Shown here piece by piece: positions 2,404 to 39,900 of a stretch of DNA of 40,348 bases. The notes under the pieces are model-generated. The model was not told the DNA's origin, searched no databases, and was given only the letters and a program-made list of their open reading frames with translations. Every line of letters begins with the position of its first letter. The first letter of the stretch is position 1. The stretch lies in assembly GCA_000934665.2 (NCBI GenBank), contig KZ538209.1:62001-102348 (forward strand). The letters run 5' to 3'. Made by a program: the position numbers and the translations under genes. Origin of the DNA: Catajapyx aquilonaris. Its lineage: Eukaryota.

Positions 2404-3080
2404 AGTTTGTGGTAGCCTAATGAGTCTGTATCTCCATGGGCCCCCCTATGACAACGTACTGTACATCACAAACATGCCAGCAAAGCAAATAAAAATGATG
2501 CCATTTTGTCTCCCATACTGGTCCTTTCACTTAGCTCCAGTGAGCCTTTAAAGAGACCATAATTGCTCCTTTGATAAGGTAACAACAAAAAAAATCCTGT
2601 CCGGTCTCTCCCAACGTTGGTCTCGTAACAAGGCGGCTACAATGAGACGCTTCCGGGCCTTTTCATGCAATAATCCGGTCAGAACAAAGGGCTAGGTCCT
2701 TTTTCCAGTGGCACGCAATTAGGGCCTTAGGGGGATTTAATGATATTGGCCCTTCCTACAAGGGATCCGAGGAAATTCCATACCCTTGGTAATAGGCAAT
2801 CGGTAGATCGAATACACTCCGACAGTGACGCCATTGGGCAATCCGCGTACGAATTTTCGCTGACACCCCGATATTCTCATCCGCCTATACTACAAAATCC
2901 TCATGGGCCACATGACTAAAGCTTGAAACGGGTCCATACGAAAATGCTTCCGGAACCGCCAGATCAACATTTTGACAAAAGGAAAATCAAGTACAGACCT
3001 ACCTTACAACCCCGGCCCATCATCACGAATATTCTATCATCATATCATGATAGCGTCGAGTCGAGAGGAATCTGCGACTC

Positions 3081-3146
3081 GCTTTTGGCATTCACCGCGT
3101 GCCTTATGATATGAACACATCAAGGCCAACAGTGAACACGAAGAGC
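3081..3146 (-). ncRNA. mir-124: microRNA precursor mir-124 (mature 3p arm 3085-3106; star 5p arm 3118-3140)
   Basis: Reverse complement of 3085-3106 is TAAGGCACGCGGTGAATGCCAA, the canonical bilaterian miR-124-3p. The 5p arm CGTGTTCACTGTTGGCCTTGATG pairs with it across a short loop (TGTTCATATCA), and the basal stem continues GCTCTT/AAAAGC. An apical UGUG sits at the 5p-loop junction and a CNNC (CCTC) lies 17 nt 3' of the mature end. Confidence 0.98.
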
Positions 3147-4341
3147 AAAGTCGGGGGACTTTTTATTTCCTTGACTTCCTCTTCCTGCTCATCCTCAGCA
3201 TGCTGCGTCTAACTTATTGCGTTCTGGCCTACGGTTTGAAGAGTGGTGGTCTGTGCCGCAGCGAACCGAGAAGGCGTCACTCTCAGACAAGCTTTTACTC
3301 AGGTCTCCCTGAGGCACAGAGAGTTGTACGAATGATAACGAACGAACGAAACCAACGAACCAACGACTTAGACTATCATGCTCCGCCTATAAAATATATT
3401 CGGCCTATTTCACGATAACAATACTGGCAGTCACTATATCTTTCAGTGATTCGTGATTGGTAGTATTTATCGAAAGATCAAGTTTTAGAGGTAGCCATGT
3501 CTGGCTAATTAATAGTTAAAACAGAATGACTTACAACTCCAGTGATAGTTTTATTAGTGCAAATATGAATTATGAATTTCGTTAATCGAATGAAAAAAAT
3601 ATTGCACGGATTTGTGTCGGTGGAACGTTGGTGAAATACTTAACAACTTATCCCCATAAATGGTGAGAGTAATGATTGTATCTGATAAGAGGCAACATTG
3701 GGAAAGAGCCACGTTTTGTTAGGTTTTATTTAGACCCCATTCAACAAATTAGACGGTCCCATTGATGTTTGATTGGCTGCAATTTCCAAATTAGAACTGA
3801 TGTCAGCATGGTCAAATTTTTTTTCTTCATAAATTTACCGTACCTTGATTCGATGTACTGTAGTATGGAAACGTGCGAAGCAAGCAGTGCAGAAAATGAT
3901 TCCACGGTGCGAAGGCATCGTCTGCATCCTATAATAGGATTATTGATTATCTTCATTTAAGCCTTCACACCGGTTCTCACCCGGTTACATTTTTAGATAA
4001 TTGCATTATTTAAAGATCCATAGCCTCATGAAGCTAAGGACGTTGCTTATTAAATACTTGTACCTACACGTCTGTAAGAGTTGACTATTTGCGTGAAATT
4101 AGTGATTTAAATTCACATCTCGTATTAGTAGTACTCGTATGAACATCATGGCACGTGACATGAGAAATGCTTTTATATTAATAATTTTTATTGCACTATA
4201 GCAGCTACTATCAATCTGCCTTTTATCTTACGCTCAAAATTTATTTATATGGCAATTTTTGCCAAATATCGTCCCTTACATGAACCCTCACCCTGACTAA
4301 TATACTTCACATCCCGACTATATAATTTGGCAACCCTGAAA

Positions 4342-6863: not shown

Positions 6864-6898
6864 NNNNNNNNNNNNNNNNNNNNNNNNNNNNNNNNNNN
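6864..6898. other. Assembly gap inside a poly-G tract
   Basis: Run of N flanked by G homopolymers on both sides. Confidence 0.97.
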
Positions 6899-10740: not shown

Positions 10741-13104
10741 CTACAACTGGAGTCTACATCATTCTGGGTTATAATATTGACACATGCGCAGCTGGTTGAG
10801 TGCGTGTAATTAATGTGCAGCATATATGGTATGACGATAAACGATCGTATAATGAGGGACCCTACGAAGAAGTGAGTCTTATTTATTCCCTGTGTACTCA
10901 AGTCTTTCGACAACTCCCAGAAATCCGTTATCGTCGTACAGCCAAGTGTCATCGTGTTCGATCCAACACTAAATGAATAATTTCCTCACGAAAACCTACC
11001 ATGCAGTTATCTCATTTGTCACTACTGACAGAAACCAATTTTAAAAGTACCTCCAAATGTCAATTAATTTTATACTGTATATTATAAATCAAATAATACT
11101 GTACAAACAACGCCCATTCAGTACAGGCTATTGATAATGTTATAAAATATTGCTAAGCTCATATCCGACTCAGACAAACGATCCCGAAATTTGTCAATCG
11201 TTTCGTGTGCCTTTAGTAAATATTTCAGCACATGCTTAACCTTACCCCAAGTTGACAAACTTGACAAAGAAAAAAAAATCAATGATTCAAGTTCCCCCAT
11301 CTCCCTATACTCACACAAAACAAGTCCATAACCTTCCCTTATTAGCCAGAAACCAGTATAATAGTCCCATGGTCCTACGTTCCGTGTTGTTTTTCGATCT
11401 ATATCAGGTGCACATTTAGCACGAAATATTCTTGCAGGTGATATAGAAGGAAGTGGCGAAGGGTAGGGGGAATGAGGAGGGAGGGACAGGGGGGGGGGGG
11501 GCACGAATTTAATTTTTTAAATTCCCGGATTGATCCCTCAGGTTGTGATAAGAAAGGTGGGGAGAATTGTGCGTGACGTTTTGTTTACACGCTATCCAGA
11601 TCTATTTTTGGTGTTCTAATTTATGTGTGCGTATGGGGGGTTGTATGTGAATGACCTCGTGCGAATCACCCTGAAGTTGCCAATAATAATGTGTGTGAAG
11701 AGGAATAGTATATGGACTGGACGTTTGGTATCAGACAAGGTCAGGTAGATTTACAGCCATTTTACAGTGAGCTGGTTGTGTAATCTGAGTCATGCAACCA
11801 CGGTGCCATTTATCTAGGAATTTTATATTTAATATGGGATAATTGGGGGAGATAGTTAAATTATTGCTGGAGAATGCGATTATGTTTGTGCAAAAATTAT
11901 TGGCATGATGGCCGGTTTTGTATTAACGCATATTAAGGAAATATATTGGGTATTTTAAAATTGTTCCTTAACTTAATGCCTTTAGAGCGATATAATTTTT
12001 ATTATTAAAAATAATAGTTACACGTCAATTTATTACTGTTGTACAAAATATTTCCGACAATTTAAAACACTGCGCTCATCAAGCTTTACATCTTGACTTT
12101 AAATATTGAAATAAAATCCCGTCTCAAAAAATCCAGCTCCAAGAAATGTTAAAAAACTACTTTTATAAAAGACATAAGCGCCCTAATAATAGTCCCACAA
12201 CGACTGTAATTAAGTTCATCTTTATGGTATATTTGAATAAGCCTGTCTATTGAACTTTGCAGGGTTCACAGTTGCCATTTCGTGACGTTCACAAGAAGAC
12301 TCACAGTGACTATAACATCATGTATTTTCGACATTTTGCAATACGTAGGGCACAGAAAGGCAATGAAATAATAGGGAATAGTTACGAGGTCGATAGAATT
12401 TCACATTTTGGCCAAAATCAATTGTTGGCGGCAAATGATATCACTTTCTTGATACTGCGTCGCGTATCAAATGAATTGACAGTCAAAGGACGAAGACCTG
12501 AAATAATGAAACTGAAGGATCAGTCATACAGGAGAGATTTTGAGATATAGAGTGTTTGAAGTTTTAAAATTTCATTCTCACTTACGGGAAATATCATGAT
12601 CTTTCAAATCTTTTCTTATGGGACAGTAATTGGCTTTTAGCAGAAAACTTATTTGACCGTCAGACAGTGTGCATCGAGTACTACATCACAAAATGCCTAA
12701 CACAGTTTCAACCAAAATGTGACTCTGATCGTTCTGCATATCAGGATTTCAAATTAAATGGGTGCAATTAAGTATAAGGTATAGGTGACCAATAACATTT
12801 TAAAAATATAACCTTGAGTATGCAATCTACAAAAATCCTTTATATTTTCCAGGCGAAAGTTACTTAGGCTTACAATCACTCAATTGACGAAAATTAGTTA
12901 CCGGTATGTTTAAAATTTAATTAATAATTTAGAGAGCATATTGCGCTGGACTGTCCATGGCAAAGAATAATGTAAGTGAATATGGTACCATAAGTCTAGT
13001 GTCGCAGAAGGATTACGATTCGATACGCTGCATAGAGTTTGAGGATTTACGTTATATTGCGGATATACATGAAATGTGGAAAATTTAAATATGGAAAATG
13101 TTGA

Positions 13105-13209
<105 letters not shown>

Positions 13210-14703
13210 CGCAAATCTGAGGTTCTTTATAAGGACGGAAAATTCATGGTATGAGTGTACCGGTATAATGAGAGGTGTATTATACAGTGTGGTCTAAGTA
13301 TTGGGTTAGTTATCGCCACTTTCGCCCGAAGGTGTTATTTTTTTGTAGCTTTTTGTAACCTGATAGATGTGCTCAATTATTTCCAGCAGTTGCTGTATAA
13401 TTGGGCACCTCGATCAGGACGCAACAAGCTACAAAAAATTACTTTCGGGTGAAAGTGACGATAACTAAAAGGCCCCCTAATACTTGGAACACTTTTAATA
13501 CGAAAGCATAATTATGAACTCAAATGAAAATAATAGTTATCAGCCGTCATATCTGAGCCATAGCATTCATTGTAACATAGCATAACATAATAATAGCAAA
13601 GCAATATTCGAAAACGTTAATTTTACCAGTCGTGTTACTGATAATACCCATTTATATAAAATAAATTAATTAAATTTTATAATAGTTCAGTATTAGCTTA
13701 AAATCGATCATGAAATCATGCTTCTGCAGCATTGAAAGACGTGATTGGGCATCGACTGCAAAGATCGGATAGAGCATGGCAAAAGATGACGAACGTGATG
13801 TCCTGGACATCGATCGAGGTGTATCGTCTGGTACGGAAGTGTAGGTCTTGCGTGACGTCAGGAGGAGTTGGCGTCACGCTTCCTTCCAAAATAGGATAAC
13901 AAACAGCGCCTCCCGACGCTCGTAAAAATCAGAGACTGGCCTTTCACCCGCAGAATTGCGCGCCTCAAATTACCCTTTATCGAATATTCCCGGCCTTTAT
14001 GTAGGTCGGGGGCACCCATGACCCCGATATTGTACGAGTTGGCAAGCACATGGCAAGATGCAATGTATAACAATATCCCCTGACTTTTTAGTTACAATGT
14101 TAATGTTAATTTGGAAATTATTGTGCGATTATACGGCAAGAATGCTAAGAGTTTTTGGATAGCAACTTTTAAACGGTAATCTGCTCATTTATTACATTGT
14201 AACATTGTAACAAGTCTCAGTTCAACAATTTAGATTGAGCAGATTATTTTCAAAGGCACGGTGACATTACGAAAGTAGGTAATATTTTAATAATCAGTAA
14301 TATCGACCGGGATGTAACATGCGTTTTCTTTTTTAAAACTAACTTCAATTTCCATCTTTACTAATTAAAATTGCCATTTGAGAAATGTGATATTGGACAT
14401 GTAATTCTCCCAGAAGAGGCCACGCCTAAGCCTGATTATGTTACTCGATGAGAGGGATACGAATGTTTCCTGACAAAGGTTGAATGTATGGGTTGTAGAA
14501 TACTGTCGCATAACAGAAATAACCGAGTGCTGGCAATTTACCAGACCAATACAAGAGATATCTGTGACTACAAAGAGACATTTTGTTCTCAGTTAATCAG
14601 ACGCTCGATGGTTTGGTCGATTGTCGAATTTCTATCGCCCTTCGAATGAAATCGAAGTCGATGGTGATGCTGATCCTCTTCTTTATGTTGCACATGCCAA
14701 CAG

Positions 14704-14775
14704 CGCTCTCACCAGGATTCGAACCCGGGACCTCCAGCTAATAAGCTGTTGCTCTTCCAACTGAGCTATGAGAGC
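14704..14775 (-). mobile_element. tRNA-derived repeat, copy 2 (6-nt anticodon loop)
   Basis: Minus strand reads GCTCTCA-TAGCTCAGTTGGAAGAGCA-ACAGC ttatta GCTGG-AGGTC-CCGGG TTCGAAT CCTGG-TGAGAGC-G. It shares the 5' leader ACAAACT and a similar 3' trailer with copy 1. Confidence 0.75.
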
Positions 14776-15844
14776 AGTTTGTTGTGTGGCATTTTTGAGG
14801 GTGACAGGACTCTTGTTAGGATAGGGTATGGGGTGTGAAACCATTCATATGAATATGCATGAAGTAAGTCACAGTGTCTCCCATATTGGACTAAACTAAA
14901 ATCAAGCCATTTTTTTTCAAATCTACGAAACTGGTTTTATCTTGCGAGTAGTATACTACAAGCCCATATATTTAGACCGAAGGAAACCTTCGCGTGCAAC
15001 ACATCACATTTGGCATTTTCAAATATTGATTCTGTTCTCAGGTCGAGTCTTACAGACTTTCTTCCACACCCTTGCCGTATTTCCACGCATATTTTTTTTT
15101 TTTCTTAAAGGAGAGATTTACATTTCCCTTGCCCACAAGCTTAGCTGGGTCCGTGGGGGCCATCAGGGCGTTGCCTTCAGAGTTTTAATCGTGATACGAG
15201 GGCAGGCAAATCAGCCAAAGTAGTTTTCCAGCTCATAAATTCCTTCCTAATGTATATAGCTGCAGGTCGTTGGCCCTCCCTCAGGCTTATAATGAGACAC
15301 ACGATATCCATAAAGGGGGGTATGGGGAGGAGAAGGTGGTGAAGTAGGGGGAGAAAAAAAAATTATAGCTTTCTGAAGAACAAAGTCTTGAAACACCGTT
15401 ACAAACTAGACTCACCTTCGATAGGTGCCCTACATATGCCTCAAACTACGTCCAGCGTCGATACAGTAGTATACTTACCGTGTTTTGATGCCTCTCCGGA
15501 GAGACAGTCATGGCCGCCAAATACAATATCAACATGGCGCCTGCGCACCCCCCCGTATTTCACACGTGTAGGCTCTTTGAGACAATGTTTGTGAATACTA
15601 ACCCCTCCCCCCCTTTGACCGCACCCTCATACGCACACAATCCCCCTTCCCTGTGGATATACATAAAATAACAACTGGCCATGAGATTTTAATGCGGTAG
15701 GGGAGGTTTAAACAAGTACTAGGGCTAGGGGGAGGGAAGGGATGCAAAATTCCCAGAGAAGCTGCACTGTCAATCACTGTCGGCAAGACCCAGTTGGGAC
15801 AAGTTGCCACTTTACCCACCCTTCTGTCCCCCACCCCCCCCCCC

Positions 15845-16059
15845 NNNNNNNNNNNNNNNNNNNNNNNNNNNNNNNNNNNNNNNNNNNNNNNNNNNNNNNN
15901 NNNNNNNNNNNNNNNNNNNNNNNNNNNNNNNNNNNNNNNNNNNNNNNNNNNNNNNNNNNNNNNNNNNNNNNNNNNNNNNNNNNNNNNNNNNNNNNNNNNN
16001 NNNNNNNNNNNNNNNNNNNNNNNNNNNNNNNNNNNNNNNNNNNNNNNNNNNNNNNNNNN
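15845..16059. other. Assembly gap between a poly-C and a poly-G tract
   Basis: Run of N with a C-run before and a G-run after. Confidence 0.97.
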
Positions 16060-17566: not shown

Positions 17567-20080
17567 GAGGCAATAGCAAGCCACGCCCATCATCTCCCAC
17601 CCAACCACCCCATCTCGTACAAAAAAAAAAAAATGGCAAGGTGAAAAAAAAGGTGATATGCAAAAAGTTGTTAAAAAATGAAATATATGTGTATATATGC
17701 GATTATCAAGCACAAAGCGTAGCGCATGTTTCTAATGCAAGTGAACCTTACCTGGTCGATGAAATGTCGATGATCCTCAGGATCAATGCTCAGGTCACGT
17801 CATATATTTTTCACCTCACCACGGAGTCTATACCTAGACGCTCATTCCCAGAACACACCTGGCTTTTCTCGACAAGACTAAGTATATGTGTTCTCTACAT
17901 ATTGCAAATACTGATCTGAGCCCGGTTTCAGGCAAAAAAGAAAGAAAAAAAGTAAACGCGATCTAAGCATAACGTTCTAAGTTGCACACTTCCTGAGTTG
18001 TGCGAGAGTTCATTGATGTCATGTCTCCCCCTATGCGTGTTACTATGCGTTCTATTTTCACGTCACATGGTGGTTATTTTTTGCCCACTCTGGTTATTTA
18101 CACTCGGTGTAGAATGATAACAATGCAGTTTATGCCCACTCCGAAATATTTTCCTTCCGAGCATGCCTCAGGTTGAGCTATACACACGTATCCTCTGTTA
18201 ACTGTTAACTAAATCATCGACATAGTATGTACCGGTACAGCAACACACATCCGGAATATTATGCAAATATCAATTTTGTCCTCCCTATAACAAAACGTGT
18301 GTTCGGAGTTTCATCCTGACTGTTCGACAACCCGTCCTACACATCTGACCACGGGGTGTAAAGGGGGAACTGACGAAACATAAAAACCAGCACGAAAGTA
18401 GGACAATGAGCTCGGTGGATAATTTTCCTCGAGCCAGCTACAGGCCCACACGAAGCCCTTTATAGAAGCACTGATTATAGCCGGCAAGAGTCAATATCTG
18501 GGGCCTTTCCCGGGATAAACGAGTCCAGCAAAGGGGGAAAATATCAAGCAAAATGGCACCGGTTGGGAAAGAAAACTGTTTGCAGTCGATATAATAAAGT
18601 ATCGCTCAGTAATGTCACGATCTAACCAGAAAAAACAAACACCCAACACTGGTTTCCCCCGGATAGTCACGTGGTCACCTATTTGACTTACTGGATACAG
18701 GACCCCGTAAGAAATCAGTATTTTAAGGGTACAATTTGGAATCGGGGGGTTACCTCCAAGGATGAGTCAGAAACGCCGCCGCACAACACCCCCTCGAGGT
18801 TGAGGTCACGAACCTCTAGCAAGGGCACAATGTCCACCCGAGGGGACATGCGAAACACCCGCACCCGCCAGGGCGTCTGCTCCAGACCCACTCCCAGCAG
18901 CCCTACCACTATTACCACCACCCATCCCACCCACCTACCACCCTACCCCACCCAACCCCGCCCCACCCTCTCTCTCATTGTGCCAACGACGATCGATGGG
19001 GCATCTACTCGCCCATTGTCACAGGGCGGCGTCACCCTTAAAACCAAGGGTATGACCTATCTACCCGTGGGTACAGAGGGAATCACATGCAACACAAACG
19101 AAAAAACTACCCCTCGGATTTTTAATTGGTAGTTTTTTTCGTACCAGGCACATTGGGGTACCAACCGGAAAGGACCTCTTGCGGGGGTTTTCCTTATGCA
19201 GGAGAGACCTGCCAACCTACAGCACAAATTGTGATGGATTTGTCAGTTCAACTTATGGTTGGTCATACACCGAATCGATTTGTATCTAACACAAACGGGA
19301 CTCTTTCACAAAAAACCTGAAATACACCTATCTCACTGTGGTCAACACACGCGCTACGACAAGAAAAGCACAGGGTGCAACCAGATGTGTTTTATTGAAA
19401 AAAAAATAAATGAACCAAACAAACAGCACACTTAGCATGCCACTTTATTAAATACAAAAACAATGAAAACAACAATTAAACCAACAATACTAATCTATAG
19501 GAAATACACACTATAAAAATGAACACAATAAAACTGAAACAACGAGGTGTGAAGCAGTCTGAAAAGGTGAAAGTCTTACTACCTGTGGCAGGTGAGAACA
19601 CCGGATCATCGTCGAATACAACTGGGGGTGGGGGGTGGGGGGGGGGGGGTTTGGTGGGGGTTGTCGTAAAGGGGGTTTCGGGGAAGAGGCGGGCGACCTG
19701 GTCTGCTGTGCCCGCCGGTATAAGGCGCCGAATGCTGGTGCCGTCCGAGCGTTGGCTCTGCACAGCTCCATGGAATCGATGCGGGAGGCCCCGTAGCCAA
19801 CATCCACCACGCCTGCGCACATGGGACATACACGACCCAACCCAGGGGTGGAACTGGAATCGCGCATCTTGCTGCTCCAGATCGGGGGAAACTGGAAGTG
19901 ATGCTGCCACAGGATCATCACTATGAGATGTGGCCAGTTATCATTTATTTGTACTATCTGAACTATTCAACGACCAATGGCGTTTTATTGAGTTAGATGC
20001 GGGTGTTCTGAATGACAATTGCAATTTTGATTATTTTTATATTGTAAAGGCTGTTTGGGAAATTGATGGGAGTGGTGGGT

Positions 20081-20083
<3 letters not shown>

Positions 20084-20143
<60 letters not shown>

Positions 20144-20310
20144 GATACCCTGTGATAGGCCTCCTTGGGCCTCTTAGGGGATCATCCTTTATTTAACCGA
20201 CTTTAATCATTGCCTGCGCTGTGATGGATTTTGATTGTGGGAGGAAATGGCAGAACCCCGAGAAAACCAACGCGAACACGGAGAGAACTTATCGAAACTA
20301 TATCCACATA
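20084..20310 (-). mobile_element. 5'-truncated V-domain SINE (V-SINE-like) with (TTA)n tail and 13-bp TSD
   Basis: 20236-20310 (TGTGGGAGGAAATGGCAGAACCCCGAGAAAACCAACGCGAACACGGAGAGAAC...CCACA) resembles the reverse complement of the V-SINE central domain. A (AAT)20 tail occupies 20083-20142. Identical flanks AGTGGTGGGTTTA lie at 20071-20083 and 20311-20323. The tRNA head is missing. Confidence 0.8.
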
Positions 20311-20900: not shown

Positions 20901-22948
20901 CTTTTGTGGTAGTATTTGACATTGTGCCATAAGGAAAGGAAAACAAGAATTATTCTCAACTAACACAAATATTTGTCAATCTGAGTTTCTGACTATTCAA
21001 GCAAAGGTTTATGAGTTTTGGTGGGTTAAATGGTTGAGTTTGGACTTTGGATTTTACAGTGAGAGATATATCAAAATGAATAATAAATATTATGAAATTC
21101 GGAACAATACTACTCAAGAGCAATTATTTGAAACACTTGACCAGGATCAGTGATTCCCAAATTGAGATTTTTCCGACCACTACTGTCGCACCATGCTGAT
21201 ATTATTTTATACCAGAGATTTGTAGCTTCAAAGTCATGTTAGTAGTCCCTGTATAAAGTGTGGTGGTAATCCTCCGAAAATACAGGTGGCATCAAAATAC
21301 TCGTTGATTTCCTCCCTCCCTCTGAAATAATCAAAACCTTACACACTCGATTCAGATAATGTCAATCTCTTCAAAACCAAATAGCCCGCATGTGCCATAT
21401 CCCACGCTGCTCGCGTTAAACTTATCACCACTTTTCAATAACGATGAACCCGGAAAATATAGGAATGTCGCCAGTTATCACGCAGCAGCAAACACTGCTC
21501 TTAGAGATGCGCGACGGATTGAACATGTTGATTTGGTCCAATCGCGCTGATTTGACACTTCCACCTTACACTTGTCCACAAAAGAAGAAAAAAAAATGCA
21601 CATATGCATAGTCAGATGTAGATATGCATGAGGGTGGTAGGTGCGAGATGCAGAGACAGGCGCTGCATCCTCCCGCATGTAGATCCGCTTCAGCCCCTTG
21701 TAGCAACCCTAGTGCTCATGCGTAACCCGCGGATGCCATGATTGCTGCAGCCACCTTTGTCCGACGGCTAAGGTGCGAAAGGGTGACGGGTCTGCGTTGT
21801 CCATAATCCCCACCCTCCCCCTCCCATATTCCCATCATCTATCCGGACACATATTCCAGTCCAACAGCCACACCTTCTCCTCTTACATACCAAGCAATTC
21901 ATACTACATTTTGTATCATTTTCAGTCTAACCAGACCTGTCCGTTTGCATCGCTCGTAAAGTTGACTGACGGGATAAGTGCAAAGCCACACGGTGGACCT
22001 TTGGCTCAGAAACGGACTCAATTACCTAAATACCTACACAGCAGATCGTGCTTATTTATGCTGATTGCTACCGAGCATTGGAGTCCAGTCCAGTGAAAAA
22101 TTGGGCGCAATTGCAACTCGAATCAGATTAGGGCTTCCTAGAGCTGGGGAAATGAATTCTAACCCACTATGCACAACCCTCCCAACCCCCGGCCTTTGCT
22201 CCCAACTCTATTCTTCAATTAGTCATTGTCGCCCTGTGATATTGAACACTTAGTCCCCACGCTCTGCTTGAATCGGGGGCTAGAGAGAGAGGGGGGGGGG
22301 AGAAAAAAAGCCAAATGGGTCTAACTACATTACAGGAATCAGTGGGCACAACGGGGAGAATTCTCATAGGAATGATGTCGATATAGGGCAATCCTTGCTG
22401 TTGGGGGAACACCCGACATGCAGTCTAGGCCCTGGCGAGGATATTCAGTACTTATGCTGCATGCTGAGCAGCAAAGGAGAAGGATCAACAAAAACATTGA
22501 TCTCCTGTCGGGGAGGCTGCGCCTGGATTTCCCCAGGACAAACTTTCCCTCAGAGTACTGCAGGTGCAAAATCACATTTGTATTTTGGATTGCAGAACAC
22601 TGATTTTTTTTGCACTGTTCGCCTAGTTTGCACATGTCTGTAGCTATGTTGAAACACTGGTTAGAATTTTTTCTATTTGAATGGCAAGTAAATGAATCGG
22701 TTCATAGAATTGGCGTCACATTAATCAAAAATTTGATTAAAGTTTTTGCAAACGGATTTTTATTTCCTGCTGATTTGATCGGACTATTCACGTGTGAAAA
22801 GAATATGGTACATATTATAATTATTATCTAATAATTATAATAAAACATTACATGCCATGAACTACTAGAGAAGCCGATGATATTCTCTTGTTTAAGAATG
22901 CTGCCAAAATTCCCAAGTTAGAAACTATCTTTCAAGGGGGGGGGGGGG

Positions 22949-23076
22949 NNNNNNNNNNNNNNNNNNNNNNNNNNNNNNNNNNNNNNNNNNNNNNNNNNNN
23001 NNNNNNNNNNNNNNNNNNNNNNNNNNNNNNNNNNNNNNNNNNNNNNNNNNNNNNNNNNNNNNNNNNNNNNNNNNNN
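22949..23076. other. Assembly gap between a poly-G and a poly-C tract
   Basis: Run of N with a G-run before and a C-run after. Confidence 0.97.
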
Positions 23077-25630
23077 CCCCCCCCCCCTCCCTCCAACTTC
23101 CCGCTTTTCACGTGCGGTCATTTGAATCGGCAAAGTCGCCTTGGCTAATTTTCTTCCCGACTTCCCGAACATCCCGATGCAAGGCACCATGATAATCTAA
23201 CTCCCAATCTACACGACTAGGAGACCAAAATCCTGTTCACTGACTTGGACTCGAAACTTTCTGGACAGTCTAAATCTCAAGACAGCGTAGTTGTGAACAC
23301 CAATTGGACCAGAAGTCAACAAACTGTTCTACCTAATAATAGTAGTAAATATGGCCTAAAAATAACTGCTTAAAAATAAACAGCTTCCAAAATTAGACTG
23401 AATCTGTGCTCTCTATACAGCATTATTAGGTAAGCAATTACATATCAAATGTAAAGTTTGTTTGTTTGTCCCATTTTAATACCTATTTCATACCCATTTT
23501 ATAAACTTTGCTTCTATATGAGGAAAAGTCCAGTGGCAATCAATTACAGCTGGATTTAGGTAGAATTCAAGATGGCGCCCCTTGGGCACTTGCCTAATGC
23601 TCCTAATGCGTATTACGGGTGCCTGATTCTACCCGTGGGGCTGAGATTCGGCATTCTCTCTTCTGTCATTTGCTCGCCTTTCTCAAGAAGGGTAATATGG
23701 TAAGAGCACCTGCAGAGAGCGCAAAATTCAATTTGTCTTATTACATCCAAGAGATGGAAGACGTCTACGGAGCCCTGATGCCAGATGCTCGATAACAATA
23801 GTAAGGGATTATTTTTTTTGTTACATAACTTGAAAGCGATTTATAGTCAGGGCTTGTAATAGTTCTGAGTTTAATGGAAGTGGGAGGCGAAGGAACAAGA
23901 CTAATTACCTTGACGATAACGACTACATTCTCTGTCCGACCCCAAACTTCTGCGAACTGGGTGACAGGTATTTTTTTTTGTAGCGATGGCCACCCTTTTA
24001 ACATCTTTTGTTGCCAGCTAGTGGACATGGTTTTGGACCAGACTTTAGTTTGGCCCGACTTCAGCTCATTCAACCCCTGCCGAGCAACATGAGTTATATT
24101 TCATCCCCCTTTCCTTCCGAGCTCATGCCCAGCCCACAACAAACGCACCTGTTTTTGGAGAAAACGGGAACAATGGGAATGAGCCAAACTAATGTGTACA
24201 ACGGTGCACTTGAATTACTCTTGAAAGTTGTACGCTTGGCTACCTTTACTTATTTGTCTTTTTTGACCTAGGCATGTACATCGTGGCATAGGCTTAGTTG
24301 TGAAGTAATATATGAAATGTGTCTGGAAGTGTGATAATAATTTTTCATTAAACTATTGCAATATTTTTTCAGCAAGATTTTAAAATAAGGGATGAACAAA
24401 AGTTTTGAAAAAACATGTGTTAAAATGTAAATATATTTACAAAGTATTGCAGAATTTTCATGGTGCCTAAGGCAGGAAGCTGACGTTGTAAAACCCGTGT
24501 TTTTATTACTTTAATATCGAAATTAGTGTAAAAACAATTCAATATAACTACTTTCGAGCAATATATATTATTACCGGTAGATGTTCCTTATTTATTTGTG
24601 TCCTTTTTTTTCAAAATAAAATTGTATAGATTTATTTGCTAAGTAGCATGTTATCAAGCGCTGCAGCCAAGTCGACAGTTATCGTTTCTTCTCCTTTTCC
24701 TGTGGCACACGCACAAAAGCGACACCTTTCCACTTAATCCGGGCTCTTCCTCCGGGCCTTTCTTATTCGGTAATTGTTTCATCGGGTAGCAGGCCATCGG
24801 AGACCAATCCCATTGGCCCTTCTACCCACCAATTTCCTCTTGCCCTCTTCTCAAATCCCCAAAGCCGTCTTCTCTTCTCCTTTTCCCCTTCCCCCCTCTT
24901 TTACTTTCTTTTTTTTCCGGATCATTCTTCTCCCAGAATCCTTTTCTCGGAGCCAAAAGGAAGGAACTTCACACACTCAATCAGCTTTTCTTTTCTTACG
25001 ACATGCGATTTGTGTCGCCTCCAACTTTTGGGCCCCCTTTCACTTGTTGACTAATTCCGAACCTTTCTCGACTAACTTTACCTAAGACATGGTCTCAACA
25101 CAATTTGTACCATGTCAAAAAGTAGCAGATTTTGCTCCAACTTTGAACTCGATGAATTTCTTTGGAAAATTCGAAACAGTCGCTGTTTGTCTCTTATTTA
25201 TTTTGCAAATGTGTAAATGTGCTTTGCGTATATTTCAAATGAATTACTCAAAGGAATCAGTATACTGTCGAGCTAGAGAGAATGGCGGGCTATTATCCGG
25301 CTGTGATCAAGCCTAGGAAACGTTGCATTATTAATAGGCCTAACTGAACATGCTGTGAACAGTACATGACTGTGAGAATAATAGCATTCACTTCGGGATG
25401 AATCCTTTGAACAGAGCAGCCACGTTTCAACATCGTCTTGGAAATGACCCTGAGGAAAAGCTTCATCCTGTGCTCTCGCTAACCTATGCGCCACTTTTGT
25501 GTTGCCGGCCAACCTATTTACAGGGGCAAAAACAAGGTACACATTATTACCCTCTATACTTATAAGGTAGCATAAGATACTGCAATAATTATAATATATC
25601 AGTATTTCTAATACAAAATATTGTCTCAAT

Positions 25631-26715: not shown

Positions 26716-28764
26716 TAATTACTCAAAAACTATCTCCCATCGGGATGTGAGAGCCTCTTCACATGCACTCCCTCTAGCACCTCCTCTCGCTCCCATCAAT
26801 TGTGATTTTGTTTCAGTGCAGTATGGTGCTTAGTTACGGAGAGAGGACCTGCTGGTTTTTCAGGTGCCTGTGTAAATTTTCTGATTTTGAATTTTTGGAA
26901 AGGGCCAGCCATGCAAATCCATGACATACTAAATGTATACTATAAACAGCATTTTGGCCTTACCAAAAATATTAAAATAAAAAGTTATAAATTGATGTGT
27001 ATTATGTGGCAATTTTTAATATCTCTGCAAGATAGGACAGTTTAAATCAATAGGATACGGATCCAGTTGGAGCATATGTTGTGACCAGGTGACAAGATAG
27101 ATACCGTATAACATAAATATGTTTTCAAAATATTAATGGCAAAAAATATATTGGAATCCCCTCTCAGATGGCCCCGAAGAAGACTCTATCTCTTAAACGC
27201 CAATCTTGTAACCCATGTTGTTCCATCGTCTGGTGGGTGACTGTGACTGCCAAGAAGGAACATTTATTTTTAGCGGGTTTTTTTTTTGCATGGGTGTGTC
27301 TGGAAGGGCGCGGTCAAACTTGCTATATATGAAGTGGGAGGATCATCGGGAACATGCCCTTGGCCAATCCTAGATCTAAGATGATTTAAGTGAAAAAATA
27401 TAATGAAGGATGTATGGTTGTACAGTACTGTACTGTATTACGTATAAGATAGTATAAAGACAGAGTGGGATAGTGAGCAAAGGTAAAACTACTATAGTTT
27501 CAGTTACTTACAAGGGGATTAAAAATCGGAAAATAATTTTACCCCTGCGGCAACAAATCCTGCTAAGATTGCCATTCTCTATCAATGTAGCAAGAGATTT
27601 TACCAGAACATTCTCTTCTCTTTTGTACGACGCACTACATCCACTCTCGTTATGTTCAACTTTCAATCTGTATATTTGAAGACAGACTCGCCCTGACTAC
27701 AATAACGAGCTCCCAGTTTAGTCCATAGCCTTCTGTACAGAATGTTCTTAAAAAATGAAGAGGAAAAAATCAAAAAAGTTCAGAAGGCTTGAAGAGTTGT
27801 CAAGGAACTCCCAAGAGAAATTAAGTTAGCCTAGATTGAAATCGGCTATCAAATTATGATTTCTCTTCAACTTAAAACTATGAAAGTATTTCAAAAGACT
27901 GGCAAAAGACTTTAAACATCATTTGAGTATTGTACACACTACCTGTTTACACAATCTCTGCACAGAATTACCTACCCTATAGTTATAAATTACTCAAAAC
28001 TTGATAGCGGAACTACTTTTTTGTAACATTGTAACAGAGCCTGCAGCACAAAAAAGTAATAAGCTTACATGCCCTTTTCTCGCAAAGGGATGAAGTCAGC
28101 GGCAGGCATTGTAACCCATCCTAGTGGAAAAGCGAACTTTCCTAATTATTCCGGGTTTAAAAAAAGGAAGAGTGTCGCTTTTCCTTTCGGAGATGCAATT
28201 TTGAAAGAAAAGGTCCGTAAGCAAGGAGAATTGCAGTGAGTTTTACTACCCCCAATCGGAGTCAAGTACCGCGCTTGTAAAATGACTCCCCGCGCAATCA
28301 CGAAACTCGAGCTTCTTCCAGATTGATCATATCTTCCGCTTCTCCTGCATCCCCAATGTTACACTCCCAGACCCTACCCATTTTTTTTCAGCCTGTATTA
28401 AGATTGTTCAGGCGTACTGCATACTTGTACTGTATACGTGGCATCGTATCTTCGAGCGACCGAACTTTTGTATCAGTAGATGAAATCCAGTGTCGTACGT
28501 ATACGCTCAATATGCAATCAGGAATCGAATCGATTTGTAAAAATGTACGCAATACACTTACGTAATTTTTATAAAAAAAATATATTTGAGTAGGTCACTA
28601 TCAAAACTATGCCATTTTTGACAAATATGTGTTAATTCCTGGTGATATTCATCAACTCAGGGCTTAATTAGTATTTCCAATATAATTATGGAATGTTTTC
28701 ACCTTGGAACTAACTCCCATTGGACAAGGTTACCTGGGCCGTGAAGAGACCCACTAATTCTTAA

Positions 28765-29421
28765 AGGGACACGCCACTCAAAAAAGAAGTTGGTCTCTAA
28801 AAATCAGGCAAAAAATCCTGATTCCGAAGGTATAAACAGTTTTTCTGAGAGACGAACGGTAAGGCCAGGGCGAGCCGTCAAAGTCTCAGAATTTGCGTCG
28901 TCTGCTCATGAGCTGCCCATCCCACTAGTCCGCGGCGCCACCGGGTACAGTACTGGCCAATAATCGAGGCAACGACTAGCGACATTTTCCCGAAGCGGCA
29001 GAAGAAGGAATCTTGCTCGCCCGGCTTGTAGCATGCTTATCTTCGATTCCTTCTTCTGCCGCTTCGGGAAAATGTCGCTAGTCGTTGCCTCGATTATTGG
29101 CCAGTACTGTACTAGGCGAAATTGGCTTGGACCTGAAAGTCGGGTCTGGTCGGGAGGTGGCCGGATGAAGACTGTGGCACGGACCAAAGATGGCGTCACC
29201 CGTGACATCGACCGGCATAGACCAAAGATGGCTGAGGATTATCCCAATTTCTGCCCAGACCCGGGAGAAGGCGCTGCTCTTTTGCGCCAGATTAGAATTG
29301 CCGAACTTTGACGCCTCACCCCCTTATCGTTCATCTCTCAGGAAAACTGCTTATACCCTCGGAATCAGGATTTTTTGCCCGATATTTAGAGCCCAACATG
29401 TATTTTGAGTGGAGTGTCCCT
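28765..29421. mobile_element. Kolobok/T2-type MITE with ~120-bp imperfect TIRs and TTAA TSD
   Basis: TTAA|AGGGACAC...GTGTCCCT|TTAA (TSD 28761-28764 and 29422-29425). Arms 28765-28884 and 29305-29421 are reverse complements with scattered mismatches. TTAA plus 5'-AG termini fits Kolobok rather than piggyBac. Confidence 0.85.
28948..29109. mobile_element. Tc1/mariner-type MITE (162 bp) nested in the Kolobok-type MITE
   Basis: TA|CAGTACTGGCC...GGCCAGTACTG|TA with TA TSD. Arms 28945-29012 and 29045-29112 are perfect 68-bp reverse complements around a 32-nt spacer. Confidence 0.85.
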
Positions 29422-30294
29422 TTAAATTCCAGTTTTTTGAATTGTTTCGACCAGAAGAATGTAGCCTGGTTTTGATAATGACCTACTCATGTTTCTCTCT
29501 CTCTTTACTATCAGGATGCCTGTCCTATTAGCGATATTGTCCAACGTACGTACATTTTCTAAAATCCATGTCATTAAAGCGCAATAATTCTTCATTGAAC
29601 ATTGATTCTATTTACCAGTTTGTTCTGTGCTATTCGTCATGACAAAGCAGCGTGTGGCAGACAGATAGGTGAAAAAAAAAGTTTGTGATTGAAGCATGAA
29701 CAGGCCACTGACATGACTCTGTTTGCGGCCAATTTGGCCCCACGTCAGAAGCACTGAAGAGTCTATTGGATTAGCGAGAGAAAAATAGTTGAATACACGT
29801 TCATTCCCCGGTTTATCGAAAGCTTGGGGATTATCAAAAGCTGGGAGTTTGTGCATCAGTGACTCTGTGAATGACTCTATCTCTCTCTAGCTCTTTTTTT
29901 TTTAGCTTATTTTGCTTTCTGACTAAGAGTTAAAATAAAAGCTCTGAGGGGAAAATGGCCCAATTTGTGCTAATGAAAGGTCCCGTGCTTAACAGTGGTG
30001 CTTCTGACACGCTGGCTAAACATTGTTGTGGCAGGGGCACAACTTCAACACATTTTTGAATACGCTTTTTTTTCTGGTTGAGAGGGAAGCGGAACATAAA
30101 TCAACCGCATGGAGCAATGAGTCCCTAATTTTGTGAAAGGTTATAAGCGACGAATCTATTGGCTTGAACGTTCGAGTAGAATTTAGGTACAAAACTGGAC
30201 AGTATGGGTATGAAAATATACGCCTGAAAACTGAGCTTTTGATGGATATTGGGGACTGGATACCTGAAAGTTACTGTCGGCATAGAAGAGAAAT

Positions 30295-30743
30295 CCACAA
30301 ATTCTGCCGTCCCAAGGAGAAACACCCTATCTGCAAAACTAGTAAGGGTGAAAGTCGCATGCATGCCCTACACTAATCCCCCTTGACTCCGGGGGGATTA
30401 GTGCATGGCATGCATGCGACTTTCACCCTTACTAGTTTTGGAGATAGGGTGTTTCTCCTTGGGACGGCAGAATTGTGGTTGTTATCAGTTGTTTACATCA
30501 CTAAGGCCGGGTTGCACCGACTCCCGGAAAATTTATCCGTCGAAAAAGAGCCATGATAGTTTATTACTGATTGTTGACAGCATTGTTGACAACAATCAAT
30601 AACAAACTATCCTGGCTCTTTTTCGGGCGGATAAATTTTCCGGGAGTCGGTGCAACCCGGCCTGATGTAAACAACTGATAACAGCCACAATTCTTCCGTC
30701 CCAAGGAGAAACACCCTATCTCCAAAACTAGTAAGGGTGAAAG
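30295..30743. repeat. Interlocking double palindrome (60-bp unit triplicated as direct-inverted-direct)
   Basis: The unit CCACAA(A)TTCTKCCGTCCCAAGGAGAAACACCCTATCTSCAAAACTAGTAAGGGTGAAAG occurs at ~30295-30354 (+), ~30420-30478 (-) and ~30685-30743 (+). Both spacers are themselves near-perfect palindromes, centred ~30386 and ~30581. Confidence 0.93.
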
Positions 30744-33924: not shown

Positions 33925-36900
33925 CCTGGCGGTTTTTCCTGCTGAATAACCTCCATGATGTTTTTTTTTTTAATTCTCGGGATTCTTCTGTTTCCTCCCA
34001 CTCTTAAATTTCATTAGTGTACAATTTAGGTAGGCTATAATAAATAAAGCATATTAGACTATTTAGACAACAGAACTGGCACATGTATGACAGTATTGCA
34101 TTATTTAGAGTTGGTGATAATAAGTCTTGGTATCACATTATGCAGCACTCTCTCTACATGTGCTAAACATGGGGACATGCATGAAGTGATGACAATAGAA
34201 ACAACAATGACTCGGTTGCATTTTGTACAGTTAAATGTCATTATGGACATCACTTCTGGCTTCGCTAGCAGTGCCTTACAATGTTTAAATAGACCCTACT
34301 GATTCGTACTATCTGATTCGTTCCTGTCGGTTGAGTGAATATGGGCATTTCATTAGTGAGCGTTATGAATGTTTTTTTTTGCTCAAAAGTTTCAATATCG
34401 ATTCTTCTATTGCATTTCAAACGTACAGTTTTGTAGTCAGCATTGTGGCTTCCAATTCATACACAGCTGAATATTTTAACAATGGGGCTATGCAAAAAAA
34501 GGGTGTGCCTTGTACAAATCACAATAGCATAGCCGTTTGTGACACATCCTCTTATGAGTTGAGCAGCCCACTATCATCACATTTAAATGTTGGCCTGGAA
34601 CTGACTTAGACAATTTGACACTCATATTTTTCATCCCCAAAACGCATGTTTTCCCAGCTCCATATCAGGAGTGAGCCTGACTTATAAATGGGCACGATAA
34701 GTAGTCATTTAGAATGGCATAGACCTTGTGCTGCCAATTGCCAAAGCCCGATAACGACAAAGAATGGCGTCCTGAGTCTATAAAAGCCAAGTAATCGCCA
34801 CCTCCAGTTATCGACAGTCCTTTTTAAAAACGTCCCCTTTATTTCCCATTTCCTCCACATCCGTTTCACCTGGCAACCCTGCTTGTTTACCTCCTTATGG
34901 AAGCCACGGGGGCTTTTCCTCTTGGGTCCAAATATAATGAGTCTTCTAAGTTTGCAGCTCTTATACCTGTCTGCGAAATGTTCTGCTTGTTAACTTAGCC
35001 CGGCTGCGCTATCTGGATAATGAAGCCAATGCCGTATTGTGCAGCTCCAAAACTTGTCATATTAGGCATTCAAATTTCGAACCAAGATGTATACCTGGAG
35101 TGGGTGCCCTTCTATTCATTCCCAAGAGCTGAAACAGCGTGCTTCATGCTGTTTGTACTATAGCTAGGGTATGAAACCTAAATCAGTGGAAAATATTTTC
35201 TGTCAGAAACTGATTTTTTGGAAGATGATTTACAAACGGGGTGAAACGATGTAGATTCATATAATGACCTATTGTTGATGTGTATACAGTATGCAATAAG
35301 GGCCTATTTGTTGCTAGGGGCTTGGACAGTTGCCCTAGGCTATAATGTTATTGAATACGTATCCAAGAGCGACTGCTAACTATTTTGGTTGCTCATTCAA
35401 AGACCTTTAGAAGCAGTCATGGAGAGTGAATAAGGACAGAGTAATATTACCTTTAATCGGTTATAGAACATTCCCGACATGTCTGCGGTTAGCTGAGGGG
35501 CCTTGTGATTGCTGGCGTGAAATTAATGCTTCCCGTAACAGGACAATCTTTGCAACAGGTATTAACCTGCCTGAATTGTAGCCTACATTTTTACCAAATT
35601 GATCCGTATCATGAGAAAAATTTGCCATAATTTTCACATGTGTATAAACTAGTTTTTTTCCTTTAACAGCCCATATGCGGTGACCGTTTTTACTTATTGG
35701 GAGATAATTATTCTATATCTTTGTATATATGGACGATAATCGGACGTACTCTTATGTAGACACGAAATGTGTGCACCATGCGAGCATAAGAAGCTTCTTG
35801 AAGTTCATTTTAAGAAGCGTAGCACAACCGAAGTAACCAACTTTTAACTGCTATCGGGAATGATTGGAGTTTACATTTTGTGGAACTACTTTCAGACTCT
35901 TCCAGGAAACGTTACCTGTGATTTGCTCGGCAACGTTCACAAAAAGGTTTTACAGCATGTCTGCCTCCTCTTAGGGCCGGGTACACCACCGGCTGTAAAT
36001 GATATGGACCTATACGGCCAGTTTATGTCATGGCAAGTTTATGATGTAAACCGGCTGCAGTTCATCCGGTCCTTATTAATGAAATTACGGGACATATTTC
36101 TGGGGACTGCTCCAACATTCACATATTGTTTGTGCATGGTTTTACATTGATGTTGATTGACTTGCATCGTAGAAATGCCTAACAGACCCTGACAACCTTG
36201 CAGTAGAAATTAATTTAGCCTGCATATAGATCTAGTTTATTAATGAAAATTCACAGGGTCTTTTGCTGTGTTAACAGTGGCGGAATTAATATGCAAATAG
36301 TCAATGATAAAGCTTCACTTTTGTAGACATTTTAGCCTGCAGTATATAAAGAATATTAATTTTTAAAGCATCCAGTATTGGACCGAACAAATCCCCATCC
36401 CATCCACCCTCACCTGGTATTTCTATATTAATTTGTTGACTTTTTTACTATGCAATTATTATTCCTTCCCTCCAGCACATACTCATGTAGGCGCACATGT
36501 ATGTTGCAGTAACATGTCACCCCCCATCACAATATGACAGTACAGTAAATATTGACAGATCCAGCATTTTGCACGTCAACCATACACTGCAACCCACTCC
36601 TAACACCTACAATGCATCCATCGACATTTCCAACTCCCCAACCAACATTACCAACTCATCTCTGATTCAAAATTTGACTACCGCGACTGACGGCACCCGC
36701 TAAAAAAGAAGGATGGAACCTGATAAACTACCCATCCCCTTTTCCCTATTCCGAATTGGATCTAAGACAAAATGGCATCCGTCTCCAAGCCAGCGGGCAG
36801 AAGTAAGGGTTTCTCCCCCTTTTCTCCCCCTTTTCGCCCCCTTCTCTCCCCTTTTCTCCCCTGCACCCCCCCACAAGATTGTCCTCATTAACCATTCGGG

Positions 36901-39900
36901 CGGCATAAATTCAGGTGAGGCTCGAGTCCCAGGAGCACATCTCTTGCATTCCGGAGGTGGTTGGAGGGAATGGCAGAAGAGCAGAGCCGCAGGTGCAGAC
37001 TCCCACCACCCCCTCCCCAGTTTCCCTCCCTCCCTCACCGCCTGCCTTATGATTTAATGTGCCCGGCCTCTTGAGCCGCTGCTGTCACTTTCTGCCTCTC
37101 TGGCTTTATTCCGCTCTGATGGGCCTGAGGGAAAGCCCACCACCTTCTCCTCCATCCTCACCCTACCTCCTACCCCCTGCTCTCTTATTAGATTTATCCC
37201 GCACGCCGCCGCCCACTAAACGCCAACCATAATGACAGATCAGATTAAAGCCCAAGGAGTGCTGATTTTAATCATTCATAGCCATGTTTTTTTGGTGGTA
37301 CCTGAGGAAAGTTCGTGTGTGGTAGGAACTTCTCTGGTTGGATGATGCTGAGCTGGGCCTAACAGGTTTGAGTTCTTAATTGGTGAATTGGCTGAAGAAA
37401 AAAAATTGCGAATTAATAACACTGTCTCTAAGGCAAATTAGACATTACTTTGCATATGATTCAGCTCCAATATTTTTAGTTGTCACCGACGGCGTTTTTG
37501 GCTTGAAAATGTCTCTTTTGATTAGATGGAGATAGGTTACTAACCTCCATCTTTTCCATGACCATTACATTTCAAGTGTGAGCAATCTGATCTGACATTC
37601 ACGTCATGCAAATCCTCTTCCATTTTGGTAATCTTTTCCTCCGCAGTAAGAAAAAAAAGAAGGTAAGAGAGGGACCATATCTTCACATAAAACTTGGGGA
37701 ACATCACTTTTAGCACAAGACAAGAAAAGACCCTCCCATCGCCTGTGCCTTTAATCCTCCATTCATCACGTCTTTATCTCTTATTCATTACGACAGATAT
37801 TAAGCAGATGAATAATCAGTAATCTTCACTTTTTTAATAACCAGAAAAGCAAGAGGAACTGATCCGAATCCTGGAATCCATTCCTCGCAGAACATACCCT
37901 CCTAATTACGTTTCTGTCCGGAAACACTGCCAAATGGTAATACCCTTCCTGAGTACTTACAAGTATTCGTAGAAGAACTTGAATCAGATGTGACGTACCG
38001 GTATATCAAGGTTTTTTTGGATGCTCTTTTATCATGGTTTTTTGGCGTTCTCCTGTTTTTTGTGAAAATGGCTGGATTATACTTATTTTTGAATGTTGTC
38101 GTGTCATGTTGCCTGCCATTCACACCTGTAGGCAAGTGCCACAACTTCATTGAAGGGGATGAGGAGCTGAGGGGAGGTATAGTAGGGGAGGAGTGAAAAT
38201 TTTAGTTTTTTGCAGGAAACTTTCTCGTCGGTTGTGGTGACTTGTCATATGGGAAGGGACACGAAAATATGTTGCAGTGAGCAGCAAATTTATGAACAGC
38301 TGAGAGTGGCTGTGAAATAATAGCATCATTATCTGCAGAGCAATGTCAAAATGTTATCTAAGAGTGTGGGCAATATTGAGTTTTCATTCTTAATATTTAA
38401 AGATGATGATGGAATATCATGAGCCTTTATGGCCGGAAGGATTTTTTTTGATCCAGTGGAAGATTAGTGGGAGGACGATCTTGCAATCAACTATTTGTAA
38501 ATCTAAAAAATTGCATAACTGCATATCTGTCAATAAGGAAACGCTGGCATAATAATGTATTCATTTTAAATTGCTTTAGCTGTATTAGACATTTTTGAGA
38601 AAATTTAATAGTCTAATGTCTGCAGCAGATTGTCATATTCTAATGAATTAAATAGGCTATTAAAACTGCATGGAAGGAGTTCTTATCAATAATTATCTTC
38701 CACTTATAATTCAAAACCCAACAATAAGCAATATAAAACAAAACTAAATAATTATACTACATTCAAGCAACACTAACGACGAAAATCACTCGCCAACCTT
38801 TAATTAACTAAGCCACTTACATCTGTCTAAACAGCCTAGCCTCATGCATGGTGCTCTTGACACACGGAATCCGAGACTGAAGACTATACGAAACTGTACC
38901 AAATCAGTTTCGCTAAAAAATTGACATAACTCATTTTGGCATATTCCAATCTGGCTATCACTTTTTCAAACAGAAGTAATGCGAAACTTCCTCTAAGCCG
39001 AAAGACAGGTTAATGGATTCCTCGGAAAACAAATTGAACTTACACAACTGCACTTTTATAATTTACCGGGAGTTCATGGCACTGAAATATAAGTCAGTAC
39101 TACATGGCGTCTACATTCAAAAAAATTGCCACCTTGAATAATCATCACCATTACTCTAGACACATGCAATTTTTTGGATAAACCTCCCAGATTGGTTGAC
39201 AACCTGCAAGTTAAAAATCAATTGAAGTTTGCACACGTTTTGGCTTGCATCATATACTGAAATGCATAGCATGCACGAGTGTGACGAAACATGTTTATTT
39301 CATGATGGAGACGCTTGCTGGTGGCATCTGAAGTGTAGGGGCGGATGTTCTGTGACCTGGAACCTAACTCCCCCAAGAAGGATGCTATATGAAAGCTGAA
39401 GTTGTGGTGCCACTTAGGTCGAGGTAAGCAGGTAACACAGTCTCAGCCTGAGCTGTTACGCTCACTGTTGCACCTGTGTGCTCTCACTCCATCTAAGGGT
39501 TCTAAGCTATACGATTCCTACACAGTGCTCCAGAAGCTGATTTTCACTTTCGCTGTTTACGTAGAAGCCATAATGGATTTAACATATTTTTTAAAAAATA
39601 AAGTGGTTATAAAAATAGTTTGTGAATACTAGCGTATTTACTGGCATATATTGGCAGAAATGATATACGAGAGCTGGATGTTGGGAGGGAGGTGGCTCTA
39701 TCTAGGGAGACTTGTGATGCGTAAATGGTGGTGGGGATCGCAAATCTGTACACGCCTTTTAAAAATTAATGAGGTTCGGGAGTACCGGAGGCCGGACTGG
39801 TACTCCCTGGACACGAGATGAGAGACTCTTTCCCAAACCTTTACCGAACTGCAGCCCAGTGGTTTCCTGCATTTAAAAAAAAAATCCTCGCATGAAGTAT

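Follow-up and report, generated by a model that had tools for sequence, protein, structure and literature searches.

The 40,348-nt window of the Catajapyx aquilonaris genome analysed here (contig KZ538209.1, positions 62,001 to 102,348 of the forward strand; GenBank assembly GCA_000934665.2) contains one mir-124 gene, not two. A 19-mer at 37035-37053 on the plus strand of this window, which an earlier sequence-only reading had flagged as a near-exact second copy of the miR-124 arm, is not a second microRNA gene. Instead, it is a real but isolated near-identity to the sequence at which mature arm and loop meet in the one mir-124 gene of the window, and on the reading that we tentatively prefer it would yield no small RNA. 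We infer, with a confidence that falls a little short of even, that 37035-37053 is without miR-124-related function and arose either as a fortuitous match or when a very short piece of DNA was copied.

The genuine gene provides the reference against which the 19-mer can be judged. Its precursor hairpin, the only mir-124 hairpin in the window, lies at 3080-3147 on the minus strand and matches the mir-124 family model RF00239 at E 2e-11, its score of 60 bits exceeding the gathering score of 49. The predicted fold has a free energy of -36.6 kcal/mol (z -4.65), and none of 200 shuffled sequences was as stable. The 20-nt mature miR-124 is set at 3087-3106 of the minus strand by the Rfam alignment. 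Termite-gut metagenomes contain insect-type mir-124 loci to which the hairpin shows 86.7% identity across 75 aligned columns, a resemblance suggestive of a protostome, and within the star arm the alignment with these loci has no gaps.

The resemblance between the 19-mer and this gene was recovered when both strands of the window were searched with the 19-mer at up to three mismatches. Only two matches were found, 37035-37053 and 3092-3110, as the sequence-only reading had reported (18 of 19 positions, same orientation), and two such matches were reached in none of 100 dinucleotide shuffles of the window. The sequences themselves, TCACCGCCTGCCTTATGAT at 37035-37053 and TCACCGCGTGCCTTATGAT at 3092-3110, both read on the plus strand, differ by a single base. 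In terms of the gene, which is 34 kb away, the 19-mer corresponds to miR-124 positions 15 to 1 followed by four loop bases; it therefore spans three quarters of the mature sequence (15 positions of 20), with 14 bases identical, and positions 16-20 are missing. Because the Rfam alignment places the mature miRNA at 3087-3106, the mismatch (3099 in the gene, 37042 in the 19-mer) falls at miRNA position 8, where C, read as RNA, is replaced by G, in agreement with the position assigned to it earlier. Also borne out was the statement that the match runs 4 nt into the precursor loop, since the bases at 3107-3110 (TGAT on the plus strand) are the first four of the loop and are included in the identity. 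As to its facts, the sequence-only reading was right throughout.

What the flagged site does not possess is a precursor structure. When 37010-37110 was folded on both strands, the minus strand gave -16.0 kcal/mol (z +0.41, with 130 of 200 shuffles as stable) and the plus strand -12.3 kcal/mol (z -0.01), so that the earlier suspicion of a hairpin too weak for processing was right and there is, in fact, none: 37035-37053 is not part of any stable fold of roughly 70 nt that would carry the mature sequence on a 3' arm. A covariance-model search of 36700-37400 returned no match to mir-124 at E<=10, although it did return 10 weak matches to other models, and the gathering score of RF00239 (49 bits) is reached nowhere in the window except at 3080-3147. 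Among the 25 longest of the 105 inverted repeats within 1.6 kb, none supplies a partner arm for the 19-mer. Having neither a hairpin nor a match to the mir-124 model, 37035-37053 is therefore not a miRNA gene, and this look-alike cannot be processed into a miRNA. Compared with the RF00239 family, it shares the 15 mature positions, the four loop bases and the orientation described above, but it lacks the hairpin, the star arm and any model match at E<=10; with position 8 altered and positions 16-20 gone, it also does not hold a complete mature sequence with the seed (2-8) intact.

These results bear directly on the idea that the minus strand of 37035-37053 encodes a working variant miRNA, the 'seed-edge variant' UAAGGCAGGCGGUGA... 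of the sequence-only reading, with the 5' end UAAGGCAGG; we consider it close to refuted. The 18/19 identity by itself, with seed positions 2-7 kept, speaks in its favour, as does a long G-rich imperfect hairpin that overlaps its last six bases. The inverted repeat in question, an imperfect one at 36952-37040 with arms at 36952-70 and 37022-40 (the hairpin spans 36951-37041 of the minus strand), overlaps only the first six bases of the 19-mer, however, and the minus-strand fold of 36940-37060 (-48.9 kcal/mol, z -1.48, 21 of 200 shuffles as good) is not significant. Moreover, in this fold the segment would sit at the foot of the 5' arm and not on a 3' arm, while a hairpin of the mir-124 type is absent at the site and both the star arm and the 3' end of the miRNA are missing.

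The variant base was also followed in metagenomes, in which a scan for the 19-mer with either base at the variable position yielded 25 loci, 16 with the C variant (the flagged form) and nine with the G variant. Six of the nine G-variant loci are full mir-124 hairpins, five of them of the termite-gut type and one other, and one more is cut by the end of its contig. Not one of the 16 C-variant loci scores for RF00239; since the C variant is never found in a mir-124 hairpin, the position-8 variant is not a known form of mir-124 in this metagenome collection. The other 18 of the 25 loci have unrelated contexts and include no orthologue of 37035-37053, and within the seven animal metagenome loci, each comprising 1.3-2.6 kb of DNA, no second near-copy was present at up to four mismatches.

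Nor does 37035-37053 look like a uniformly decayed hairpin. The sequence-only reading had leaned towards a relic mir-124 duplicate, and, taken as a decayed whole hairpin, this proposal has the observations against it: the identity has sharp edges, the 3' bases of the miRNA are gone, and neither a star arm nor any enrichment of shared k-mers accompanies it. Outside the 19-mer, identity to the gene is at the random level (7 of 30 positions to the left and 16 of 60 to the right), and gapped local alignments scored within the shuffle distribution, at its mean, whether the flanks compared were 40, 80 or 150 nt long. A search of 35000-39500 for a remnant of the star arm found none, the best match having 9 mismatches in 23 positions, which equals what is found elsewhere. 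Blocks at 2-4 kb and at 36-38 kb shared no excess of k-mers, since 12 of 210 block pairs were as high at k=11 and 72 of 210 at k=12. The GGCC..TGAG echo of the star arm that had been noticed after the match does exist (37065-37068 and 37072-37075, to be compared with 3124-3127 and 3133-3136 in the gene), but its register is off by two bases, and over its whole length the flank on the right aligns no better than shuffled sequence. With one change in 19 bases lying beside saturated flanks, uniform decay is impossible, and descent from the gene would need either a copy of about 20 nt or cuts on both sides. An ancient segmental duplication was likewise ruled out by the flank alignments, the k-mer block counts and the star-arm search. 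The lesson is that an 18/19 match is insufficient for a paralog call when identity ends abruptly at both of its edges.

To put a figure on coincidence, we computed chance expectations for this window from the composition of 500-nt blocks, allowing up to one mismatch. The expected number of matches is 4.9e-6 when only the flagged 19-mer in its observed orientation is counted; it rises to 8.4e-5 when every 19-mer with at least 15 mature-arm bases is admitted on either strand, and to 8.8e-4 when all 19-mers from the 68-nt hairpin are, again on either strand. For whole genomes of the window's composition, the flagged 19-mer would be expected at up to one mismatch 0.05 times in 0.2 Gb, 0.24 times in 1 Gb and 0.72 times in 3 Gb. 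The 500-nt block in which the 19-mer lies has, of all blocks, the composition most favourable to it, and the probability is still tiny. At an expectation of 8e-5 to 9e-4 per window, coincidence is thus not a comfortable answer.

A census of short matches across the window shows how exceptional the pair is. Partners at one mismatch or fewer exist for 70 of 3,958 random 19-mers drawn from the window, nearly all of them in microsatellites and transposon-like repeats. There are seven isolated direct pairs, six of which consist of homopolymer, microsatellite or local tandem repeats; the pair formed by 37035-37053 and 3092-3110 is the only complex, non-local 18/19 pair in direct orientation in the whole window. 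Ungapped matches scoring at least 15 numbered 130, of which 68 were no longer than 30 nt, and only four of these combined complex sequence with a separation of more than 200 nt. Known repeats account for two of the four (a tRNA-like element pair and a MITE-like element), and the remaining two are the 19-mer pair and an inverted 15/15 match between 2497-2511 and 36765-36779. By our own estimate, uniform composition would produce some 0.3 pairs at 18/19 and some 1.5 exact 15-mers; the inverted match was rejected as a link between the two regions, being within the chance number and not collinear. Because nothing else of this kind occurs in the window, a mechanism that disperses short copies here is not indicated.

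It is possible, though we think it doubtful, that 37035-37053 is a fragment copied from the mir-124 locus and now inert, whether as the last piece of an old local duplicate that has been cut on both sides or as a break-repair patch of about 19-21 nt. A copy of this kind would carry the match across the boundary between mature arm and loop, and the four bases beyond that boundary are not required by selection for miRNA pairing; the orientation, which is that of the gene, and the low chance expectation are consistent with it as well. The change of one base in 19 beside flanks of about 25% identity is incompatible with uniform decay of such a fragment, however, and the very parts that are most conserved in functional copies, positions 16-20 and the star arm, are gone. 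The two neighbourhoods share nothing else above background, and the window has no general excess of short copied patches, holding two complex isolated matches outside known repeats. Extra copies of mir-124 do exist in invertebrates: a report on the spider Parasteatoda tepidariorum (PMC4987109) gives three, a parallel in so far as mir-124 duplicates arise outside vertebrates, but these are reported there as gene copies, whereas 37035-37053 is no more than a 19-nt fragment.

A different origin for the match, which we rate as rather unlikely, is that 37035-37053 is a candidate miR-124 site in an RNA transcribed from the plus strand, such as a lncRNA or a long 3' UTR with its coding exons beyond the window, and is one of four clustered sites between 34.26 and 37.75 kb. 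In this scheme miR-124 made 34 kb away would bind and repress the plus-strand RNA, and pairing at positions 9-12 might also allow slicing of that RNA, or titration of miR-124. The sequence-only reading had described the pairing correctly: within the 19-mer, TGCCTTA at 37043-37049 (+) forms a 7mer-A1 seed match, with Watson-Crick pairs at positions 2-7 and an A opposite position 1, and is joined by pairing to miRNA positions 9-15. The predicted duplex has an energy of -24.2 kcal/mol, as against -39.7 kcal/mol for a perfect complement of miR-124, and ranks third among 19,918 scanned 28-nt windows. Ahead of it are the antisense of the gene itself and a plus-strand site at 34258-34278, where an 8mer seed match (34271-34278) is combined with predicted 3'-half pairing, such that 19 of the 20 miRNA bases pair (two as G:U) around two target bulges and the energy reaches -25.1 kcal/mol. 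Apart from the gene's own antisense, the two strongest miR-124 duplexes of the window both lie on the plus strand, 2.8 kb apart, and two duplexes of -24 kcal/mol or better were seen in none of 14 shuffled windows. Since a single duplex of that strength was seen in five of the 14, such an energy alone is not rare.

Scanning for seed sites added two 7mer-m8 matches on the plus strand, at 34505-34511 and 37745-37751, giving four canonical sites in 3.5 kb of plus strand where 0.68 are expected (local shuffle P 0.005). The three neighbouring sites may lend weak support to a miR-124 target, and a sponge or decoy RNA would be expected to carry multiple sites for one miRNA on a single transcript, in excess of chance. 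Once corrected for the scan, however, the cluster is marginal, with 22 of 300 whole-window shuffles reaching four sites in 3.6 kb (P about 0.07), and real 8-mers of equal site count cluster as tightly in 1.9% (n=5) to 4.6% (n=6) of cases. The four matching loop bases are, in addition, left unexplained by pairing. A host transcript with a coding portion also finds little to build on, as no recognisable coding sequence or exon emerged from a Pfam scan of 18 of the 56 ORFs of at least 90 aa together with 78 of the 105 ORFs of at least 45 aa at 30-40 kb. The only two matches were sub-threshold (EABR, 19.3 with a cut-off of 25; Collagen, 16.8 with a cut-off of 27.2), and with nothing better from the scanned ORFs we rejected a coding gene whose 3' UTR holds the sites.

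The putative site can be compared with three kinds of extensively paired miRNA partner. Near-perfect sites of the slicer type pair contiguously from position 2 to about position 16, including positions 10-11; the duplex predicted at 37035-37053 has positions 1-7 and 9-15 paired, a mismatch at 8 and no pairs past 15. Triggers of target-directed miRNA degradation (TDMD), such as Cyrano for miR-7, combine seed pairing with extensive pairing of the miRNA 3' end. The candidate site is like them in joining seed pairing to unusually extensive complementarity, possibly in a non-coding RNA, but of positions 16-20 only 18 could pair, and as pairing ends at position 15 the site is without the 3'-end pairing typical of TDMD triggers. 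Among 10 of the 69 papers matched by a literature search, no title or abstract describes a TDMD trigger for miR-124. The third comparison is with the 'compound' sites of Hall et al. 2025 (PMC12529927), who report that AGO-miR-124 gains affinity through pairing to the 3' region, and that sites with both seed and 3' pairing give stronger repression. A 7mer-A1 seed with added contiguous pairing at 9-15 on the plus strand resembles this arrangement; according to the same paper, however, effective 3' pairing is at least 10 nt long and is stronger if distal, and shorter contiguous 3' stretches give no binding alone, whereas the pairing predicted here is central, comprises only seven bases and ends at position 15.

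Copying and targeting might also have acted in succession, in that a short piece of mir-124 was copied over 34 kb in the same orientation and its plus strand is today included in a non-coding RNA with three other miR-124 sites, making it a cis-linked, highly complementary target or decoy born from the miRNA gene. We regard this scenario as a long shot. In plants, miRNA genes can arise by inverted duplication of their targets, and the hallmark of common descent is that a miRNA locus resembles its complementary site past the limits of the mature miRNA. It is this similarity beyond the mature miRNA that 37035-37053 has in common with the plant genes; it differs from them in that the genome is that of an animal, the copy would be direct and not inverted, and the extra bases are only four. 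If true, the scenario would extend to an animal the connection that duplication creates in plants between a miRNA and its target, with possible local feedback on miR-124. Were the site conserved, expressed and derived from the miRNA gene, it would reveal a new route by which an animal miRNA can acquire a highly complementary partner to which it is genomically linked.

No single reading explains everything, and a part of our confidence is allotted to none of them. Chance accounts for the sharp edges and for the absence of function-related structure, not for the location of the match. Descent accounts for the location and for the loop identity, and requires a very short copy. Selection for a miR-124 target could account for the location and for the neighbouring sites, not for the loop bases. 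The view that we prefer, that of a probably non-functional sequence, must itself contend with the low chance expectation (8.4e-5 to 8.8e-4), with three other same-strand sites within 3.5 kb, and with the fact that a single complex match falls on the window's only miRNA, which it leaves as an unexplained coincidence.

Finally, the setting of the 19-mer is unusual in composition. It lies in a gene-poor stretch, within a GC-rich, CpG-poor and pyrimidine-rich patch of low complexity at 36700-37250, and it starts at the end of a CCCT-type tract, on the 3' edge of a (CCCT)n-like sequence. The patch is 54.6% GC, compared with 40.9% for the window, which places it in the top 1.1% of 550-nt windows. 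The earlier description of a GC-rich, regulatory-looking island is therefore accurate as to GC content, but the patch is a C/T-rich low-complexity sequence and not a CpG island, its observed/expected CpG ratio being 0.49 across 36700-37250. A CpG-island promoter was ruled out on the same grounds (observed/expected 0.33-0.49). The pyrimidine bias is marked around the 19-mer itself, reaching 73% at 37000-37199.

Within the window, the strongest predicted miRNA:target pairing for miR-124, once the antisense of the mir-124 gene itself (3080-3147, minus strand) is set aside, falls at 34258-34278 on the plus strand, where an 8mer seed match is accompanied by predicted pairing of 19 of the 20 miRNA bases (-25.1 kcal/mol). 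This site lies 2.8 kb upstream, on the same strand, of the miR-124 look-alike at 37035-37053 (+), a 19-mer that matches 3092-3110 (+), within mir-124, at 18 of 19 positions.

At least four G-runs (GGGAGGGAGGGAAACTGGGGAGGGGG) occupy 37007-37034 on the minus strand, directly 3' of the look-alike on that strand, and by their sequence make up a motif of the G-quadruplex type. Tandem units resembling CCCCCTTTTCT are found at 36810-36875 (+), and a 16-nt inverted repeat (37231-37246 and 37584-37599; AATGACAGATCAGATT and AATCTGATCTGACATT) has arms that are 94% complementary and 337 nt apart. The stretch that holds this inverted repeat also carries several TAAT/ATTA and TGACAG motifs, and might represent a candidate regulatory module.

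The neighbourhoods of mir-124 and of the look-alike are also connected by an inverted exact 15-mer (2497-2511 and 36765-36779). Known repeats aside, this 15-mer and the 19-mer pair are the only isolated short matches of complex sequence in the window. The number of such matches is no higher than expected by chance, and the 15-mer shows no collinearity with the 19-mer pair.

Two minus-strand tRNA-like elements, at 2332-2403 and 14703-14775 (Rfam tRNA, 51.5 and 55.3 bits, respectively), share an exact 23-mer (2388-2410 and 14760-14782); ARAGORN assigns the first as tRNA-Leu(TAA) and makes no assignment for the second. Both may represent either tRNA genes or SINEs of tRNA origin. The first is located ~680 nt from mir-124.

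Other repeats include MITE-like inverted repeats at 28761-29425 and 30300-30743, with arms of 104 nt (88% complementary) and 81-83 nt (96-98% complementary) and an accompanying 55-nt direct repeat, together with long microsatellites of the (ATG)n/(ATT)n and (AAT)n types at 13088-13219 and 20072-20152, in opposite orientation and separated by 6.9 kb. Runs of N (6864-6898, 15845-16059, 22949-23076 and 31492) are probably assembly gaps at tracts that are difficult to sequence. ORF translations through them yield runs of Gly or Pro codons, indicating G- or C-rich flanking DNA, and the run at 22949-23076 is spanned by a 77-nt palindrome (22935-23088).
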